A stretch of DNA of 64,000 nt from NCBI GenBank assembly GCA_951406725.2, contig OX597815.1, positions 37,758,001 to 37,822,000 on the forward strand, given 5' to 3'. Of this stretch, positions 400 to 62,095 are shown piece by piece. The notes beneath the pieces are model-generated. The model saw only the letters and a list, made by a program, of their open reading frames with translations. It did no database searches and was not told the origin of the DNA. This stretch comes from Octopus vulgaris. Lineage: Eukaryota. The first letter of the stretch is position 1. Every line of letters starts with the position of its first letter. Both the position numbers and the translations under genes were made by a program.

Positions 400-1080
400 A
401 ACAGATTTCAGGTCTATTTCAGTGTGGCTGACTAGATTGCAATCGTCAGCGTATAAGAGTTCTGTAATGAGTAAAGTAAAAGGATTTTGATTTGAATTTC
501 AGTCTGGTCAGATAAGAAACATTCCCTGTTGTTCGATACTTGATGTAAATACCCACCTTGGAGTTTTGAAAATCGTGTGACTGCACAGCAGCAAAGTATA
601 TTGCAAAGAGGGTGGGTGCATCTATTTCTCCTTGCTTTACTCCATTTTCCACGGCAAAAGATTCTGAAAGCCTACCACGAAAATTAACTCTAGCCTTCAA
701 ACCATAATCATGTTTACAAATTTTTCTGGGTAACATATTTTCCTTAGAATTAGCTACAGAGCATTTCGATTAACAGTATCGAGTGCCTTGCTTAAATCAA
801 CAAAGCAGTGTTATAGGGCAAGATTCTGTTTGATGAATTTTTCCAGGAATTGCCTGATAGTAAAGATACAATCAAATGTGCCCCTAGAGGAACGAAAACC
901 ACACTGAGATTCAGACACTATATTTAGAACAATGAAGGTATTTAAACGTTCGAACAGAACGTGGGCAAGTACCTTTCCAACTAAAGACAAACGCGAAATC
1001 TCACGAAAATTACCACACAGGTCCTTTGGCTCCGACTTATACAAGGATACTAAAATTGCATCAATCTATCCTTGAGGCAC
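400..1080 (-). mobile_element. RTE-clade LINE reverse transcriptase remnant
   Basis: Minus-strand frames give SESQCGFRSSRGTFDCIFTIRQFLEK, ESFAVENGVKQG...APTLFAIY and LITELLYADD (~441-470), with frameshifts. Confidence 0.9.
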
Positions 1081-1212
1081 TTCCCCAATTCTCCAACAGT
1101 AACAAATTAATATATTTAAAAGTTCAAACATTTTATCACTCCCATATTTCAAGACCTCTGCACAGATTTCATCAAGCCCTAGAGACTTATTGGTATTTAC
1201 AGCTAATAAATG

Positions 1213-1214
<2 letters not shown>

Positions 1215-1284
<70 letters not shown>

Positions 1285-1310
1285 ATGTATGTATATATAT
1301 ATATGCGTAT
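1215..1310. repeat. (TA)n/(TG)n microsatellite
   Basis: Direct reading. Confidence 0.95.
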
Positions 1311-1339
1311 GTGTGCATGCATGTACCTATAAATACATG

Positions 1340-2030
1340 TCCACACACATATATCTTAGGTGAGTGCGATTCATGGCTTGATAAAGCCCTCATGAATTTT
1401 TTTATTACAGTATGTATACACTGGATTATATTTGTCGCATGTAATATATACATGAATACATACACTAATAAAGGTTTCGTTCATTTTGTATCTAGTTCTA
1501 GTTTAGCAATATTGAGTGTGCTAGAATGAAATTTATAAATGGATTTATTTTAAGATTTTTGAATTGCGATTTTTAATGGCATGTGATGTGTATATGGACA
1601 TATAGTTCTTGTTATGTTTCTTTTCTTAAATGATGTACTTGTAGAAATTTTAGCAATGCGAATATATGGTTTGAAGAAGCTATTAACTTTCTGACTTTAA
1701 TAAACATGCTTAGTTCTTCGTTCCAAATCCCAAACGCAAGTTACTTATATTTTAGGGCCATCTTCCTTGAGCCATATATTTTATTTCAAGTAAGACACAT
1801 TAATACGCCAGTTCAAAGAGAGTAATACGAATATTCCTTGGATGCATGTACTAACTCTATTTTCTAATTATGATCCGATTAAAGTGAATTACTGAGGAAA
1901 TAAGGCGATGGGAGGCATAAAATATTATATGTGATGACAAAGATGGAGTGTTTTAAAATTTAACAGCCCCATGGGTGGAGTAAGTAGCTGTGAGGAAGCA
2001 GAAGAGAGTTTGAGAGACTAGTTATCAAAA
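1340..2030 (-). mobile_element. Possible highly decayed Penelope-like remnant
   Basis: Minus frame FKPYIRIAKISTSTSFKKKKHNK weakly resembles the PLE linker between RT and GIY-YIG (LPYI..S..I...LKKHNI). No diagnostic motif is intact. Confidence 0.25.
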
Positions 2031-3899
2031 TAGAGGACATTCAGAATGCTCTCTTTCACCAAGCCAAGTATATCTTAATCCGTAATGTTGTAATTTTCGA
2101 GATCTTTAGTAAATACTTATGACACTCTGGCATTTGCATAGCGTAATTATTAAAATTCAGAATAAATATCTTAAACAATCGTAAATTATAATGTAGCAAA
2201 AAATAATATTATGTGGTTAATTAAAATCTCTTCATTTAATAAACAATGACTACGTCAAATTAGGTGTTAAACGTAATGGCTTTAAAGATGAAATATATTA
2301 CAAATTATAAAAATAATAATATTCCTCAGACAGGAAAATAGAAAACAATCTTATTTGGTTTAATAACCTATTCACGTGGTTAAATATCTCTAGTTTATTA
2401 AGTAAATAATTACCGAGGAATCTTAAATCTTATATAAAATACTTTATAAAACGTAATGTCAAATTACGTTTCACTTGCACATAAATAATTCCATCGAAGG
2501 ACCTTACACATATAAACAGATCCAGCTCTTCACTAATATGCAATTGTCTTACTCCCTTAATCCTGAAAACTATAACTTTGAAAACTGACTGCCCTTTTTC
2601 CGAAAGTATGCACTTCTGATAATCCTGTCTCAAAAGACATTATCAGTCTGACTGCAACACCACAAACCATCACTCAGAAAATCTGAATTATGACCTACAA
2701 AATTATTTAAAAGATATTGGTATCAGACATTACATACTGAGAGAGAATCACAGCTGCAATAGTGAAAATATTAGCAGTTTGTTTCATAAAAAATTTTACT
2801 TTGAACGCTGTACATATGTAGTGCCATTAATCAAAATATTAGTTAGGTTATTTTTTAAACACTCTAACAAACAGCGAAAATAACAAAAAAAATTTTGCTA
2901 GCGAATCTTAAATTGAAAAATGTTTAACATTAGAAATGGTATTTCTCTTTGGAAATAACCCAAATCGGCAAGCTGTGAACTTTGAGGTGGTTGTCCATCT
3001 TAATAATACTAAAACTCTAGGGATGTTTGTGTGTACCCGAAATATCTCAGAAACAGTATATTTTATCTTAATTTTTTGTTACACATTTATTTCCATTCTT
3101 ACGTTCGACAGTGCAGTACAAATTTTTGTGACATGTGTATCTCTATTTATCAATGAAAACGAGTAAACAAAATTCTTGTGTTTACTCGTGACGTCAACAC
3201 ACATTCACACATACAGAACACACACATATGATGAATGTCATGGCGTGTCAATCAACACAAACACACGTCTGCTATTTGTGAGGTATACACACACAGTCTT
3301 CGGGCTCTCGAAGAAAAAAAAATGGCTTTTTGACGTACACATTTTAAAATATTTTTAACTGAATATGATTTCAAAAAAGTTGTTTGTACAGTAAGTATCT
3401 ATATTTTAGCTTTCTTTAAACAGACAATATTTTAATGTTTTTTAAAAATTAGTTTCAAGTCGTTAATTTCCGTAAAAAATGTCACTTTCATTTTCTCCTC
3501 TCTTTCACTTTAAAGCAAAAGTAAATAATAAAAAAAAATGCAAAATTCAACGATCAACACCAGCTGGCTGACAGTTTTGAGAGTCAAAGCGAAAGATCGC
3601 CCCAAAGAAATACCATTACAAAAAATTTTTCGTGTGCATTCAACGTATCGCAACTCCAAAGTTTTAGCTGCTATTTCTAGCACGGTCTGCTACCACGTAA
3701 CAGCTATTTGTGATAAAGGACCCAAAATACCTGTTACGTGGTAGTAGGGCGTCCAAGAAATAGCAGCCACACCTTTTTTTTTCCACATATACATATACAT
3801 ATACATACATCCACACATACATATATCATCATCCCATCAATTTATCCGCTTTCTTTTTCCTCGCTGCATCTCTTGCCTGTCCTTGTACTGTTCTCCTCT

Positions 3900-6215: not shown

Positions 6216-7539
6216 TTATAAATTATAAATACCAAAACACGGATGTAAACTCTTACATTTGGAGAAATTAGGACAGATTATGGAGTATGCGTACACTAGC
6301 ACTTGATTGCACGAATGTCATGCAATCAATAAGATGACAGGGTGTAGCGATGAAACCATAACAGACCATTTAATTAATAGCTTAAGTAATTAGTAAATTG
6401 ATGAGCAAACAGAAGTGAACTACGACCAGTGTGTGTCCGACTGACTGGATGATTCGCCTAAACTACAAGCCTTATCTGTTTCGAGACATAATTTAAATCA
6501 TATATGTATGTACATTCGTGTACCTGTGCCCGCGCGCGTGTTTTTGCGAGCGTGCGTACATATGCAAACAACCTGCGTAGGCATATACATGAAGCCGAAA
6601 TTTCAATCTTTTGCTAATCCAGAGCTTGTTGATCATTCAGGCGACTGATGAGTTTTTACAATTTGTAACAGATCTGCTGTACAAATCATCTATCTTGCAG
6701 ATCTCTTGATCAATATCGACATCAATTTATCGTACTTAGTTTTCACGCTAGAATTATATTTCTTCTTCTGATATTGCTATTAACTGGGATTGGTATCCGT
6801 TGCAGAATACCAATTGCCATGACAGTCTACAGTAGCAGCAGAAGTGGTCGAAATGCCAGATGATTCATAGAGACACAGATAATGTTTATTTACACGCCTA
6901 GATTTCACTAACGGTTATAGACTTTTCAATTTGATTGTTCTTCTCTGTTCATATTGCATTTAGTTTGTTGATATTTTAAACATTTGGAAATTATTCCTTT
7001 CTCATTTTGATTTATCGTTTCCCATATATTTCAGTTAAGTATCTAATTTTCTGACGTTATTGTTAATAAGATTATTATTTTTAAAAGTTATTGACCTTAA
7101 CATTAAACATGGCTATCTAATAATATATACATCTGAGCTGCAGTTCTAATGTTTTTTTTCTGGTATCATTATCAGGTATTTTAGTCTTCGAAGTATACAC
7201 GACACAAGTCCGGTATCACATATTTCGCCAATGTTGTTTACGTTACGCCTTTGTTGGATATTACTGCCGCCGTTTATGATCCTTTGATATTACTTCTGTC
7301 CCATATATAGCACCTCCTGTGATGTTTGTCGTTTAGTTAGCGTTTGTTCCTATTTTAAAAAAAGTTTGCTCTATGTTAAGTGTGCAGATTAAAGAGACCA
7401 TGGGTCATTGCTGGTACCTATTAATTTATATAGAAGCTGGAGGTTTCGAAGCAGTTGTCCATAGATATCTTCTTTTTCTATTATTTTCAAAGCGATGTTT
7501 ATATTTATATCTGCAGTGTAGCTGATCTCTATGATGGTA

Positions 7540-17212: not shown

Positions 17213-17595
17213 AATACAAAATATATAATTATATAATTATAATAAGGACACGAATGAGAAGTACCACATGTTAGAAATAGACGCCAAATGGCTTTAAAAA
17301 CTACACGCTTGTGGAAACGTGATATTCATATGGGTATATATAAATGTTTATAGTTATGTACATTGAGTTGTACCATACTGATGACGGTAAAGGGAGTTAC
17401 ATACTTGAAGTAGAAATTGATTTATGGTTAAGCACTCTTTTAAAAAAATCTTTTTTTTGTTCACTGCCCTCGCTTTCAGCCCGTGGCAATGTAGTAAATA
17501 ATATGGTTCTCGGAGCTATTTGGTTTCTATTTCTAGCATGTGGCGCTACTCATTAGGGCTCTTATTATATTTATATAATTATATATTTTGTATTC
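17213..17595. mobile_element. Inverted-repeat insert (Penelope-type) with decayed hammerhead in the spacer
   Basis: ~80-nt arms at 17213-17295 and 17513-17595; plus ACCATA-CTGATGA-CGGTA...TACTT-GAAG...TATGGT at 17372-17428. Confidence 0.7.
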
Positions 17596-17680: not shown

Positions 17681-17825
17681 AACTTGACAGTCTTGTAGAG
17701 GGAATTACACCACCGCTATATTGCCCTAAGAAAAAAATCGACGCTTCCTTTCGGCTTTGACACATTTCCTGTGTCCTTATATATGCAAAGGAGAGGCAAG
17801 CGCCCCCACCAGCTAGGACTAGCAA

Positions 17826-17872
17826 CCTGAATACATTCATGTTTCTGGGTATTGCCCGTCATCAGTTCAAGG
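17826..17872 (-). ncRNA. Type I hammerhead ribozyme (copy 1, stems slightly mutated)
   Basis: Minus: TTGAA-CTGATGA-CGGGCAATACCCA-GAAA-CATGAATG-TA-TTCAGG. Confidence 0.75.
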
Positions 17873-18180
17873 TAGCGTGTCCCCGCTAGCGGTGATACTT
17901 ACCAAGCCTTTGCAAATATATCTATTTACAGTGAAATTTATTCACTGGTCGCCGTAATTAGAAATATTGAATTTCTAAATGTCTCAACGAGACATGAGCG
18001 GTGGCGGAGCGATAGAATGGTTGTATAAAGTCAACATAACGTGACAGTCCCGTAGAGGGAATTACACCATCGCCATGTAGCCCTAGGAAGCAACGACGCT
18101 TCCTGTTGGCTTTGACACAATTCCTGTGTCTTTATATTTGCAAAGGGGAGGGAAGCACATCCATCAGCTAGGACTAGCAA

Positions 18181-18227
18181 CCTGAATACATGCATGTTTC
18201 TGGGTATTGCCCGTCATCAGTTCAGGG
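18181..18227 (-). ncRNA. Type I hammerhead ribozyme (copy 2)
   Basis: Minus: CCTGAA-CTGATGA-CGGGCAATACCCA-GAAA-CATGCATG-TA-TTCAGG. Perfect 6-bp stem I, palindromic stem III, GUA triplet; C.A mismatch closes stem II. Confidence 0.85.
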
Positions 18228-18349
18228 AAGCGTGTCCCCGCTAGCGGTGATACTTACCAAGCCTTTGCAAATATTGTATGTAAATATTTGGTAGGATGGT
18301 GTGTGTATATGTGTGCACAGACACACAAACACACACACGCATATATATA

Positions 18350-18521
18350 CATATATACGACGGGCTTCTTTCAGTTTCCGTCTACTAAATCCACTCACAA
18401 GGCTTTGGTCGGCCCGAGGCTATAGTAGAAAACACTTGCCCAAGGTGCCACGCAGTGGGACTGAACCCGGGACCGTGTGGTTGGTAAACAAGCTACTTAC
18501 CACACAGCCACTCCTGCGCCT
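18350..18521 (-). mobile_element. tRNA-derived CORE-like SINE (family A, resembles octopus OR-type)
   Basis: Minus GGCGCAGGAGTGGCTGTGTGGTAAG (A box), GGTTCAGTCCC (B box), CCTTGGGCAAGT. Confidence 0.9.
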
Positions 18522-19130: not shown

Positions 19131-19529
19131 AGGTATGTTAGAGCATGCTGAATTGTGGTCTGTATTTTTGAATAAGATTATTTTCCCTATTTATTCGAGT
19201 TTGGTCATTGGTGTTGTCAGGGCATTGGTATAGTGGGAAAACTGGGAATTTGGGGGACTTGTTGTGTGCACAGAGGTCTAAATGCCCACAAAGTGGTATC
19301 TCTCTTGTGGTGGGATCCCTCCGTTGTTGGCGGTCATATAAAGTACACAAATGGTACTTAGTTTTTCGCCCCCGAATAGACGAAAGAAAAAATCGATCTC
19401 GGCAGAATTTGAACTCAAAATGTATAGACAGACGGTCATAGTTTAGAAACATTTCTCATGGCACCAGTATACTGTTTAGAGATGCTTACATTTTTTATGT
19501 TTTCTGTGAATTTTTCACGGGTTCAGCTA

Positions 19530-22344: not shown

Positions 22345-22505
22345 TTAATTCTTTTACTTGTTTCAGTCATTTCACTTATTCTATCGGTCTCTTTTGCCGA
22401 AACGCTAACTCACGGGGTTGTAAACACACCAGCATCGTTTGTCAAGCGATGATGGAGGGACAAACACAGACACACACATGCAAATAAATACACACACATA
22501 CACAA

Positions 22506-22536
<31 letters not shown>

Positions 22537-22690
22537 ACAGGCTTGTTTCAGTTTCTGTTTACCAAATCTACACACATGGCTTTGGTCCGCCAGAGGCTAT
22601 GGTAGAAGAAACTTGCCGAATGTGCTACGCAGTGGGACCGAAGCCGGAATCATGAGGTTGGAAAGAAAGCTTCTTCTGCCACCCCTGCAC
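22345..22690 (-). mobile_element. SINE family A with internal microsatellite
   Basis: Both halves match the 40550-40943 copy in reverse complement. Confidence 0.8.
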
Positions 22691-33879: not shown

Positions 33880-34355
33880 CGTACTTGATCCATGGAATCT
33901 TTTCACTTTCATCGACAGATCGAGAAATTAATTTTTTGTAACTAATCACTTTCAAACTTCGGACCACTGGTAGAATGTGTCATATAAAACATCTTTTACT
34001 CTTAGCGTTTTTAAGAAAACCTTATATTTCGGAAGCTATTTCATGCTAGAGATGTCGTATTTCGGTAATTTCAACCAATAAATTACGTGTATTCAGCTGA
34101 ATAAGATTACTGCTGTTGTTTGTCAACAACAACTATCGGCGATGTATGTTTCGTTTGTCACTGTTATTTATGACCTTGTTCGTGCGTTTGCACTGGTTTT
34201 AGCTTTAGGGTTTTAGGGTTAGCGTTAGGGTTTTAGGGTTAGGGTTAGAATTTTAGGGTTAGATTCCTGATGTGAAATCGTGTGTTGAAACAGATATTGT
34301 TGTATTTCGGGATGGCCATTTTATTTATTTATTTTTTTGTCCAAATAATCATCCG

Positions 34356-40549: not shown

Positions 40550-40943
40550 GCGTGGCTGTGTGGTAAGTAGCTTGCTAACCAACCACATGGTTCCGGGTTC
40601 AGTCCCACTGCGTGGCATCTTGGGCTAGTGTCTTCTGCTATAGCCCCGGGCCGACCAATGCCTTGTGAGTGGATTTGGTAGACGGAAACTGAAAGAAGCC
40701 TGTCGTATATATGTATATATATATATAAGTGTGTGTGTATATGTTTGTGTGTCTGTGTTTGTCCCCCTAGCATTACTTGACAACCGATGCTGGTGTGTTT
40801 ACGTCCCCGTCACTTAGCGGTTCGGCAAAAGAGACCGATAGAATAAGTACTGGGCTTACAAAGAATAAGTCCCGGGGTCGATTTGCTCGACTAAAGGCGG
40901 TGCTCCAGCATGGCTGCAGTCAAATGACTGAAACAAGTAAACA
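40550..40943 (+). mobile_element. SINE family A, near full length, with internal (TA)/(TG) tract
   Basis: GTGGCTGTGTGGTAAGTAGC...GGTTCAGTCCC...GAAAGAAGCC-(TA)n-...GGGGTCGATTTGCTCGACTAAAGGCGGTGCTCCAGCATGG...GAAACAAGTAAA. Confidence 0.92.
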
Positions 40944-46460: not shown

Positions 46461-49452
46461 TTAGATGAGCGGAGGTAGGAATAAAAGTAATAAAAGTCAT
46501 TATTGTGAATTGTTAACTTCTGGTGTGTTATGCGAATTATGTCAATTAAGCAATATTAAAATTTCTGATTCAAAGACATATATATATATATATATATGTA
46601 ATTACTCATACATGATATGAGTACAAGAGGTAGTCAGCACAGATTAAACAGATATTAAGTAACTTAAGATGTGGCAAAAGAGATAGTAAATATAATTTAT
46701 CGGAACCAGTTGATTCGTACAGCTAAGCACACCTTGTGATGACTTGATGAATGAAGAATTCTGTTCGAAGCCACATCTATGTTATTGCAATAAACGAAGT
46801 AAAAAGAAAGAATGCTTAACAGCATAAGCTGCAATTGATTTTCAAACTATAATAGCTACAGACGGTTACAAAAAGTTTTGCACAAGAAACTGCAAAATGT
46901 CAGCGCAAACTTATTGGTGTCAAAACGATAATACTTCGCTAAAGTTATGTTCAGTGCTGAACATAAGATCGAAGGTGTTTGGAGTAAATGTGTGGTGTCC
47001 TGATCAATAGTACGAATAAGTAGTGAAACTGTTTATAAAAGATTTTATAACAGAAAACCATTCTTCTTTTGCACCAGCAGCATCTGTATAGTGTGAGTGC
47101 GAAAGCCAAGGAAGGTGTGACTATTGATGTCAATGACTGCATTGAATTCAGAAAAATAGTTTGAAATTCACTGTGGAATAGTTTCCAGTGACTGGAGTAA
47201 AAATATATGGAATATTTACTACATAGCACAAACATTTGGATTTTAGTATTCAATATAAAATAATATACTATGAGGTAAAATGAATATGAAATAAAATAAT
47301 ATGAGGTAAAATGTTTCCTATATGTTCTAAAAGGATTACTCAATACACAGTTGCAGCTGATTATACAGTGCTTTAGACGGTGAATCTTTAATGAAATAAG
47401 ATTAGTCAGTTCGGTTGCATTGAAAGACCCGATTCATTGTTGTTAACCGCCCGGCCTAGTTTCAGTATATATATTTATTCATAATTTTCGCTTTATAGGG
47501 CTTGGCTCTTAAACTTCTAAGAGTACATAAATCTTATGATGCCGAACCGAATCGTGTTTGTATTTGTTATAAAGTAGTACGACAGCACTTAATTTGGATA
47601 GTTTGAAACTAGGACGCTCTGTCCTTATTCCAAGCAGTTGATACCTATCTAATCTATACTATTAATTCAGTACTGAATTTGTTAATTCCCTATATTTGCA
47701 TATTTACTATTGATTATACTACAAGTGTGTATGCATTTCCCAAATTGAATATGAAAGCGTTTTGATTTTAAAGTAGATGTTTTTAACTAACATTGACACT
47801 GATTCATTACACTGTCTACCTATAGTTCTTTGACAAAATTAGTGAAAATTATTCTAAATTAAATTTGACTGCGTTTTATAGAGTTGGAATATTTTGCTTT
47901 ATAGGAGCTATTTATAAATTAGTGAAAGCACAGAATTTTAGGTAAAACATTAAATGTATAAAATAAAAATATTTGCTCTGCAATTATATTTAACCCGTAC
48001 AGAGTCCTCTGTGACACTCTTTGGAATTGTCATTTTCTTGATCATTCAATCAGGAATTTTCTTCCTCTCCCTTTCTCTCTCTCTCTCTCTCTCACTTAAA
48101 AACGCACTTGTAGAAATATAGATATAACTCCTAGCACACAACTGACGGATGGATTTGAGGTCCTATTTAGAATATATAATTTAAGACGTGAGGATAGGAG
48201 CTTGAACTAAGTACACAAAGAGGACTTTTAAATTAGGAAATTAGTGGTAGTCTACGTGGACAAAATCTATTCAGTGCATATTTCTTTTTTGTTCAAGTGA
48301 AAAATCACTCCCAAAATTTTAAAGACATCTTTTCCGCACAGCATAGGAATTTAGACCCCCCCCACCAAGTTACTATGTCATTTTTACTCTCGGTGACATC
48401 TACTATCTCTCGGTGGGCTCTTGCTGATATATAAATTCCATAAAGTGCATCTACATTGCATATCTTATAAGCAACTCTTTGAAGAATAGCTTCAACCACT
48501 TCTCGATAATCATATCTACCAACAACTACCTGAGACTTGTTGGTTGAAATAAATTGCTTTTCTTTATCAGATTAGGTGACACTTTCGAAAAATCAGATTG
48601 TTTTCATCCCCATGCTTACGAACTTATTTAAAGTAACGAACTTTAAATGACAAGCTTTTACTTGACATTGTAAAATAGTTTGATAGTTTGATAGTTTTTG
48701 ACATTTAAAAATTTCGTTATATTACTTTTCCTTGAGTTGGCATTTCTGGTATCCGCTTAAATACTTTCTTGAGGACATTGCTATTCTTCTTTGGGCCTAG
48801 ACCTCCGTGAATTAGGGTAATATTTTCATTAGCCACAAGATAGGAATCAATCAAAATAAGGGAAAGAGGCAGCGAACGCGCTGTTTTCTGATTGGCTGAC
48901 AATTCTGAAAATGATCAAACTTTGAACAACTGTAATATTTTTTCAAAATTTTTCTAGAATCAATGAATCACAAATTCGGATTCAGCGTTAAAAAATACAT
49001 TTATATGATACATTGAAGAATATTTTAAAGATAATTGCAAACAGTGACGAAAACCACAAAGATCAACACAAATTCACAAACTTATTCTGAAAATATCAAA
49101 AAATAAGAAAATTCTTGACTAATTAAATGTTGAAGTATTTTTCTTGGACGGAATAGCTGTCCCACCCTTCGTTATTTTATTGTATTCCCCGTTCTGAAAC
49201 ACATTCAAGACACATTAAAAAGATAAAAATTTCTCCCTTATATCGTACCTCTCACAAAAATTTGTTTTTGTTTTATTTTCGTTTATGAGAAATTATAAAA
49301 AATTCAAGAGATTTCGCTGTTATTTCTAGCATGTGAAGAGACCTTCTAGGCTTAACTTCATGCGGTGGTTGAAAATCAACTAACAAAAATTCTGGGGTCG
49401 ATACTTTCGACTAATAATTCTTCAAGCGGTGCCCTATCATTACCGCAGTCTA

Positions 49453-49596
49453 GTGGCTGTGTGGTAAGTAGCTTGCTTACCAACCACATGGTTCCGGGTT
49501 CAGTCCCACTGCGTGACACGTTGGGCAAGTGTCTTCTACTATAGCCTCGGGTCTACCAAAGCCTTGTGAGTAGACGGAAACTGAAAGAAGCCCGTC

Positions 49597-59055: not shown

Positions 59056-59104
<49 letters not shown>

Positions 59105-59109
<5 letters not shown>

Positions 59110-59400
59110 TAATCCTTCGAACAGTCGGTCAGCAGCGACGCCTCCTGGATCCGGCTACTCCACATTGATAAGAGGCAAACACCTCGAAACTAGTCTGTGG
59201 ATGCCAGAGCAGCAAGGGGAAGCTGCTGACCTCTTCTTTACGAAGGTTATAATGGACACAGGTTTGTGTGTCACCTAGCTAGCTAGAGGCGATGGCCTCT
59301 TGGAGCTAATCAACGGCAGCATTCGTCCTATTTATCTGGACTGCCATGTTAGCTTGGCAATAACTATTAATCTCCAGTACCGCTGCCGTAGTCTCCTTTA
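59105..59400 (+). mobile_element. Structured, hammerhead-containing non-coding element (retrozyme-like monomer)
   Basis: GC-rich island next to (TA)n with nested stems; architecture parallels the 17681-18274 repeat. Confidence 0.75.
59159..59201 (+). ncRNA. Minimal type I hammerhead with two core substitutions
   Basis: TCCACA-tTGATaA-GAGG-CAAACA-CCTC-GAAA-CTAG-TC-TGTGGA; perfect stems I and II, palindromic CTAG, GUC triplet. Confidence 0.8.
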
Positions 59401-59733
59401 GAGAGAATTAGAAATAATGATATTTCTATTTTTTTTTAAATATATTATTTTACATGTATCATTTTATTGGGATTAACAGTAGGATAAATTGTAACTCCAA
59501 AGATTTTACGCAATTTGCAAAATTGTTAGGGTGATAAAAATTAGCATGATATCTATCTGAAAGAGAATTCGGTTCCCTGAGCGCTTGAACACTGCCCATG
59601 ATGTGTAATGGTTAATACACACGATAGAAGTTTTAAAATGGGTGATATTTTCCTCTCGCATGAACTGTATCTGTAACCAGTAACTTTAGTATTGCTGATT
59701 CCTTGTTGGTTTCTGTTAATTATAATTTCGTGA

Positions 59734-61885: not shown

Positions 61886-61933
<48 letters not shown>

Positions 61934-62095
61934 TATACGACGGGTTTCTTTTAGTTTCCGTCTACGAAATCCACTCAAAAAGATTTGGTCGGCGCGATGC
62001 TATAGTGGCAAGCACTTACCCAAGGCGTCAAGCAGTGGGACTGAACGCGGAACGTTGTGGTTGGGTAGGAAGCTTCTTAGCACACAACCACGCCT
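61688..62095 (-). mobile_element. SINE family A with internal microsatellite
   Basis: Reverse-complement similarity to the 40550 copy. Confidence 0.85.

Follow-up and report, generated by a model that had tools for sequence, protein, structure and literature searches.

Animal non-LTR retrozymes are non-coding tandem repeats of ~350-nt monomers (350-390 bp in mussels), each bearing one type I hammerhead ribozyme; their GC content lies below or near 45-50%, they are dispersed as monomers to multimers, and they co-occur with Penelope elements (Cervera and de la Pena, 2020, PMC7229834; Li, Clavereau and Pollet, 2026, bioRxiv 10.64898/2026.07.22.740005). They have been proposed to be non-autonomous Penelope derivatives (Li, Clavereau and Pollet, 2026), and Penelope mobilisation of animal retrozymes is a standing hypothesis that, in the portions of these two texts available to us, has so far been argued from co-occurrence and from similarity to pLTRs, with which Xenopus retrozymes are homologous. 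A circular or multimeric template has been proposed for retrozymes (Cervera and de la Pena, 2020), and cleavage was seen in only one of nine retrozyme dimers tested (Li, Clavereau and Pollet, 2026). Penelope-like elements and derivatives such as MRC1 form partial tandems with an inverted 5'-truncated copy, carry a tail of 30-40 nt at one end, favour (TA)n targets and include head-to-tail, multi-copy non-autonomous forms (Craig et al., 2021, 10.1101/2021.04.23.441226; Cervera and de la Pena, 2014, PMC4209133). Their minimal hammerheads have a short palindromic stem III that has been linked to dimeric activity, and in schistosome Penelope hammerheads a U3-A8 pair has been reported in place of C3-G8 (Cervera and de la Pena, 2014).

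The window analysed here, a 64,000-nt stretch of octopus DNA, contains two related elements, a family A copy at 59.1 kb and a family B dimer at 17.7-18.3 kb (Table 1). An initial annotation made from the sequence had described the former as a divergent element with the RNA architecture of the latter and had not recognised it as described, which is correct for the specific family and incorrect for the class, that of animal non-LTR retrozymes (Cervera and de la Pena, 2020). The words 'Octopus' and 'cephalopod' do not occur in that paper, and our literature search found no description of this retrozyme family or of octopus non-autonomous Penelope hammerheads; supplements, Repbase or Dfam may already include these families. 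At 59.1 kb, the annotated hammerhead (59159-59201) is indeed nested in two long-range helices, GGTCAGCAGC at 59127 with GCTGCTGACC at 59222 and, outside it, CCTTCG at 59114 with CGAAGG at 59241. Also where they had been placed are the core TTGATAA at 59165, TATAA at 59248, the GACACA hairpin (59255-59272; counterpart in B at 18114-18130), a 6-bp hairpin (AGAGGC at 59285, GCCTCT at 59295) followed by GAGCTA at 59303, and GGACTGCCATGTTA at 59338, to be compared with GGACTGTCACGTTA at 18050 on the minus strand. The shared order of these downstream modules was borne out when the two domains were folded separately and gave an identical order of helices (z -3.2 and -3.0), and in each case none of 100 dinucleotide shuffles folded as well as the 59.1-kb element (z -3.65) or the 18-kb unit (z -5.34). 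The match reaches past the limits first drawn for it, through the closing stem of a multibranch domain (59313-59389) and two terminal hairpins to 59428, and it includes an upstream hairpin that the truncated window A copy lacks. No Rfam family reached gathering score anywhere in the window; between 58900 and 59600 there were nine weak matches, no hammerhead model among them, which we read as AT-repeat artefacts, and a repeat search over the whole window gave output dominated by microsatellites.

Table 1. Features of the two retrozyme loci in the window (positions count from the first nucleotide of the 64,000-nt stretch).
Feature	Position	Strand	Basis
Family B monomer, canonical CUGAUGA core at 18220-18214	17959..18290	-	
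Linker, first hairpin (17929-17947) and second head-to-tail B monomer (core 17865), terminating in (TA)n	17681..17958	-	
Family A retrozyme monomer, 5'-truncated (without first hairpin and linker), stopping at the 'long' fixed end	59108..59428	+	
Long interrupted rod with hammerhead at its tip	59114..59246	+	fold, cross-family alignment, covariation
Type I hammerhead motif: stem I, U3-A8 variant core 59165-59171	59159..59201	+	sequence; PMC4209133 (seen in part)
Hammerhead stem II of 4 bp; stem III minimal and palindromic; predicted cut after C59195	59159..59201	+	
GACACA hairpin, near-invariant between lineages	59255..59272	+	
Two-part stem-loop (outer 4-5 bp, inner 6 bp) with compensatory changes	59276..59308	+	
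Multibranch domain with two inner hairpins	59313..59389	+	
'Short' fixed insertion end, in the unpaired linker of the multibranch domain	near 59369	+	
Two terminal hairpins, within the ~55-nt tail separating short and long ends	59390..59428	+	
(TA)n microsatellite at the 5' junction of the A copy, the family's usual target	59058..59111	.	

In searches of the 2.8-Gb genome (227 contigs), A and B each retrieved dispersed copies at 87-95% identity (best 40 of 2138 and of 2318 candidates), with candidates on many contigs (best 40 per search scored); first-look candidates numbered 836-3345 per search, and these figures are not copy numbers. Alignments of 30 loci each for A and B show the unit repeating head to tail, the last hairpin leading through a short linker to the first hairpin and the unit again. 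The units are short and non-coding, with tandem periods of 343-362 nt, inside the span of about 150-400 nt that characterises non-LTR retrozymes, and occur as dimers to multimers, the longest array consisting of 11 head-to-tail family H units with a period of 355 nt (L423; G000:C4:13.62 Mb). There are at least eight subfamilies, A, A2, B, C, D, E, G and H, of which C, E, G and H were reached via divergent pieces and A2 and D were taken from junction loci; they form three lineages (A/A2/C, B/D/E and G/H), with identities of 44-57% between and 73-93% within them, and the copies of C and E are young, being 97.8% identical within each family. The same module order recurs in all eight majority sequences. 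Fragments of additional divergent subfamilies were also seen (L217:6092-6233; L171:2343-2510).

Stems I-III and a core keeping the 3-8 pair are present in the majority sequence of all eight families, as read from sequence with no Rfam match. The initial annotation took the UUGAUAA core to mean that the window copy may be dead and proposed checking whether the consensus is CUGAUGA. In family A it is not: UUGAUAA is the majority, found in 29 of 32 pieces, and young family C has UUGAAAA in 39 of 43 and UUGACAA in 3 more, with U3/A8 in 42 of the 43, such that the A lineage keeps U3 with A8 and varies at position 7. Because UUGAUAA is the family norm and U3-A8 covariation has been reported (Cervera and de la Pena, 2014), the description 'dead' is unsupported; the window copy is probably not a source copy, the reason being its 5' truncation and its single monomer rather than the core sequence. 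CUGAUGA occurs in 23 and CUGACGA in 9 of 38 family B cores, and CUGAUGA in 20 of 23 from family G. Families E (CCGAUGA, 28 of 28) and H (CCGAAGA, 13 of 18) have a U4C core. With a 6-bp stem I and a 4-bp stem II, the octopus hammerhead differs from the minimal pLTR form (Cervera and de la Pena, 2014).

Each of the six families examined has its 3' ends gathered at two fixed points ~50-60 nt apart and its 5' ends scattered, and the Penelope-like combination of a partial tandem with an inverted 5'-truncated copy is present, an inverted piece being found in 13 of 30 loci for A, 10 of 30 for B, 20 of 25 for C, 10 of 20 for E, 7 of 25 for G and 5 of 15 for H. One long and one short end bound 20 of the 21 two-sided C loci (25 loci, 4 one-sided) and 10 of the 10 two-sided E loci (20 loci), an arrangement also described for Penelope elements (Craig et al., 2021). 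Of the C ends, 43 of 46 enter a microsatellite; such flanks are rarer in the older families (18 of 47 for A, 3 of 20 for H). This anatomy identifies the element as a non-LTR retrozyme, and we regard it as a well-supported variant of that known class, that is, of non-autonomous Penelope-type elements. It shares with Penelope-like elements the tail at one end, the (TA)n bias, the palindromic stem III, the U3-A8 core variant and the head-to-tail non-autonomous form, and differs from them in having no ORF and a tail of about 55 nt rather than 30-40 (Craig et al., 2021; Cervera and de la Pena, 2014).

Insertions do not stop at the predicted ribozyme cut; the two ends lie about 175 and 230 nt downstream of it (in family C, cut at 118 and ends at 292 and 351), and reverse transcription therefore begins within the unit and continues across the cut. 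As they run back through the cut over up to 11 units, the template is likely a circle or an uncut multimer. Our favoured account, which we consider very probable, is of a ~350-nt head-to-tail non-LTR retrozyme whose predicted fold is kept monomer-wide and which is likely copied in trans into TA microsatellites by a Penelope-like RT/endonuclease. Tandem copies would be transcribed, and the hammerhead, probably as a dimer formed through the palindromic stem III, would cut out unit-length RNA that may then be circularised. The covarying 3' domain, which holds both insertion ends, is likely recognised by the enzyme or stabilises the RNA, and the product, as seen in DNA, is a truncated tandem with an inverted piece and one long and one short end. 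Contigs resembling C occur in four sequencing runs (four organism labels; none on record as RNA), and a 392-nt C-like contig closes on itself in two of the four, but a tandem array yields the same closure as a circle and this contig is therefore no evidence on expression or circularity.

The predicted monomer fold comprises a first hairpin, a long interrupted rod with the hammerhead at its tip, a GACACA-type hairpin, a two-part stem-loop, a multibranch domain and terminal hairpins; the last of these is missing from the majority-sequence folds of G and H, and for C and D the minimum-energy structures depart from this plan towards the end. Published retrozyme folds, in the portions available, are per-family energy predictions without cross-family covariation (Cervera and de la Pena, 2020; Li, Clavereau and Pollet, 2026), and our literature search found no whole-monomer covarying retrozyme fold. 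In the octopus families compensatory changes outside the ribozyme are enriched. In a test of our own, not R-scape, pairs predicted in one family were read in the next through sequence-only alignments (7 comparisons of 8 family majority sequences under four structure-blind alignment settings). The 3' domain has 27-29 both-side changes against 7-9 expected if the sides were independent, and 19-23 doubly changed pairs still pair against 13-14 expected (P 0.0003-0.023); for the first hairpin and rod there are 40-43 both-side changes against 18-19 expected, 26-29 of them still paired (P 0.002-0.008). Within the hammerhead itself double changes were not significant in this test (P 0.09-0.28). RNAalifold on 24 natural copies predicted 39 pairs, 26 with compensatory change. 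Among the 39 non-ribozyme pairs in 24 natural copies, 21 change on both sides, a number reached by 12 of 500 shuffles, 91% of cells pair against 30-47% for slid partners, and the covariation score is 0.49 against 0.25 for the control; further pair types (50 against 53 shuffled) were the one of five measures not above control. The structure in this 39-pair test derives partly from the same alignment, and the test left out the GACACA and terminal hairpins, both of which the aligner misregisters. Taken together, the tests outside the ribozyme are suggestive to good, and no replacement for R-scape. The initial annotation had held that stems differ in sequence with pairing kept, which agrees with the enrichment of compensatory changes on structure-blind alignments, and had staked its proposal on covariation outside the hammerhead, which our own test finds (P 0.0003-0.02). 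Its broader suggestion of a family of small structured mobile elements, with a fold kept beyond the ribozyme, is supported by covariation and insertion anatomy alike.

It could be asked whether this fold is kept for the sake of the RNA itself, the monomer leading its own life as an abundant circle, possibly with RNA-to-RNA copying or a host role. Covariation does extend over the entire monomer, even to the rod, which is distant from the insertion ends, and coral, mussel and axolotl all contain abundant retrozyme circles (Cervera and de la Pena, 2020). Moreover, the active Penelope pLTRs of the genome share no fold with the monomer, and a Penelope enzyme may therefore not need the monomer's structure. 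Selection for circle stability and hammerhead folding would, however, account for the rod without RNA replication; we think an RNA-level life unlikely as the reason for the fold, and it is in any case compatible with, and not exclusive of, a retrozyme copied by Penelope enzymes.

The octopus retrozyme is also a target for other elements. A young, intact LINE with a 515-aa CCHC ORF1 and a 1140-aa endonuclease-RT ORF2 lies in a C monomer (L137:1773-7165, minus), with a 16-17-nt target duplication ending 16 nt before the hammerhead core. A search with the 3' end of this LINE gave 30 loci. The 20 nearest to it (96-100%) all occupy the C site, where 17 continue into the remainder of C and 3 into the site and a further LINE; 5 of the 20 are members of a single array. 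Another 8, next in rank, are inserted elsewhere, most of them in front of ATAC-like sequence and one exactly at the 5' end of a U1 gene, and 2 of the 30 are short of the 3' end. Thirteen dispersed loci fetched whole include 11 full-length copies with both site halves, one truncated copy with the duplication and one truncated copy with target loss. In a midpoint-rooted tree from which 8 short rows were left out, the 19 retrozyme-site rows form one branch (100/99) apart from 3 U1/ATAC rows, and the LINE apparently reached its retrozyme target from a U1-type site. A second element, an ORF1-only LINE derivative of 1.65 kb (L093:861-2520; L091; L092; L353-L382) with an ORF1 27% identical to that of the first LINE, uses the equivalent arm of B, D, G and H monomers, immediately before the hammerhead; of its 30 loci, 22 continue into a B/D/G/H monomer, 3 have the site alone and then other sequence, and 5 are elsewhere. 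In both lineages the insertion point is about 15-35 nt upstream of the core, so that the hammerhead comes to lie immediately after the 3' end of the LINE, whose RNA it may trim.

We call the inserted LINEs Tx1-like, a provisional name given for their features; the CCHC ORF1, endonuclease-RT ORF2 and site-specific insertion with duplication that mark Tx1 were all found, and an atlas comparison of their RT gave generic RT clusters only. Tx1-clade LINEs that target other transposons are known, and Tx1 in Tx1D, Tx1-Mar in Mariner-N4 and Keno in U2 (Kojima, 2015, PMC4494074) have the same two ORFs and share with the octopus LINEs a fixed site in another repeat, a 16-17-nt duplication, tandem arrays and snRNA-targeting relatives; in octopus, unlike the cases given in the part of that paper available, the target is a hammerhead retrozyme, just upstream of its core. 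Our literature search found no Tx1-type LINE with a retrozyme target, though repeat libraries or supplements may list one, and the accessible portions of Cervera and de la Pena (2020) and Li, Clavereau and Pollet (2026) make no mention of LINE targeting for animal retrozymes. As further observations, loci with the LINE at the C site (L143-L162, L223-L237, L242) include tandem arrays near G000:C2:73.04-73.07 Mb, and older relatives occupy sites resembling the 5' end of U1, L170 being a U1 gene. Another full-length older copy is flanked by two U2 snRNA genes in opposite orientation (L240:401-594, 6985-7178) and carries the first bases of U1 at its 5' junction.

The association might instead stem from one or two chance insertions that were multiplied as composites by Penelope machinery. 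At L147 a truncated LINE is fused to inverted C copies, which suggests that this composite was once moved by Penelope enzymes, and the identical junctions of the 11 full-length dispersed copies and the single array among the youngest matches would be expected on the same grounds. Against a general explanation of this kind stand a 5'-truncated LINE with both site halves and the duplication (L228), LINE-LINE tandems separated by just the 16-17-nt site, near-identical LINEs in different C haplotypes, and the presence of the second element in B, D, G and H monomers only 51-78% alike. We therefore consider it improbable and already weakened, and retain target-specific insertion.

If Penelope enzymes copy the retrozyme, a partner should be sought among the intact Penelope-like ORFs of the genome, from which four intact families were sampled; from their motifs, we take those with 778- and 899-aa ORFs to be Hydra-like and those with 781- and 775-aa ORFs to be Neptune-like. 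Pfam gave no match on the 778- and 899-aa ORFs. All four have hammerhead-like motifs and ends of their own, and no similarity of these 3' ends to the monomer was detected. The 775-aa family (L302; L383-L422), in which 150 of the 150 matches listed are 100% identical over 220 aa, suggests a current burst and is a candidate partner for families C and E; among 8 two-ended loci of this intact Neptune-like element, 6 combine a long end with a short one, and the autonomous Neptune-like element shows, by eye, the same U3-A8 core as the A lineage. Separately, the intact ORFs of 778, 899-908 and 781 aa are 97-99% alike within families (L203-L222; L293-L301), and these families have a hammerhead-like motif near the 3' end, U3-A8 in one and U4C in the others, and TA targets.

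The repeats could, then, simply be solo pLTRs left by 5'-truncated autonomous Penelope elements, the fold being that of the pLTR. Hammerheads and long and short ends are pLTR features (Craig et al., 2021), the Xenopus homology (Li, Clavereau and Pollet, 2026) would fit, and our sampling covered only some Penelope clades of the genome. Yet what comes straight after the long end is the beginning of the same unit and not an ORF, none of the 30 junction loci read leads to a Penelope ORF (two lead into a LINE ORF1), and arrays reach 11 units. The eight-family profile found no pLTR homologue, and no autonomous element with the monomer as terminal repeat, in 110 Penelope-like loci (the four intact families and relatives); its matches there were read in sequence at L302, L200 and L217, where they are separate insertions, and judged by coordinates only at L173, L177, L281 and L307. 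The match at L302, considered as the pLTR of an autonomous partner, is a separate family-G insertion, and two wide-spaced C pairs examined as pLTRs proved to be a duplication (L136) and the LINE insertion at L137. Of 197 retrozyme loci, 11 have a Penelope ORF fragment nearby and none, by coordinates, has an intact ORF followed by the repeat; the RT and GIY-YIG ORF between repeats that defines an autonomous Penelope element was not found. An origin as solo pLTRs is accordingly quite improbable.

For a retrozyme copied in trans by Penelope enzymes, then, the octopus genome offers young families (about 98% identical) whose junctions themselves bear the Penelope signature, in the presence of intact, very young Penelope ORFs. 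Three things go beyond the portions of the published texts available: a fold that covaries along the monomer, signs of Penelope mobilisation in the junctions with no pLTR homologue found, and the two LINE lineages that insert into the element. The fold and the two fixed internal ends point to RNA positions for mutation, and a substrate of 360 nt allows direct tests of Penelope template recognition, of priming and of the role of the hammerhead. The LINEs, which insert into a retroelement bearing a ribozyme and apparently came to it from U1, provide a tractable case of endonuclease retargeting, and of a LINE possibly borrowing its neighbour's ribozyme. It is tempting to speculate further, and only tentatively, on a three-layer parasitism in which the retrozyme copied by Penelope enzymes offers them, in its whole 350-nt fold, a platform for recognition and priming that has persisted through deep divergence, and two Tx1-like LINEs, one of them from U1 snRNA genes, have independently joined it just upstream of the hammerhead, their RNA being produced and trimmed by retrozyme transcription and ribozyme cleavage and sometimes travelling as Penelope cargo.

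Lastly, that the likeness of A and B reflects chance or convergence of unrelated hairpin-rich repeats, as the weak pieces given by blastn (best E 0.004) might suggest, has virtually no chance of being true and is refuted by a global identity of 57%, which makes them sequence homologues and not only fold analogues, by colinear modules, intermediates and a third lineage, and by a shared monomer-junction pattern with 233 genome matches against 0 for the reversed control. The surroundings of the B dimer contain a decayed GIY-YIG C-terminal fragment upstream (19141-19332, minus) and a possible decayed minimal hammerhead downstream (about 17520-17560, minus), so that the 3' region of an old Penelope copy seems to enclose both the dimer and a SINE. 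Copies of an abundant repeat that we presume to be SINE-like lie at 18316-18511, 40552-40747, 22490-22675, 49452-49574 and 61914-62093, and a short TTAGGG-like interstitial repeat lies at 34195-34262.
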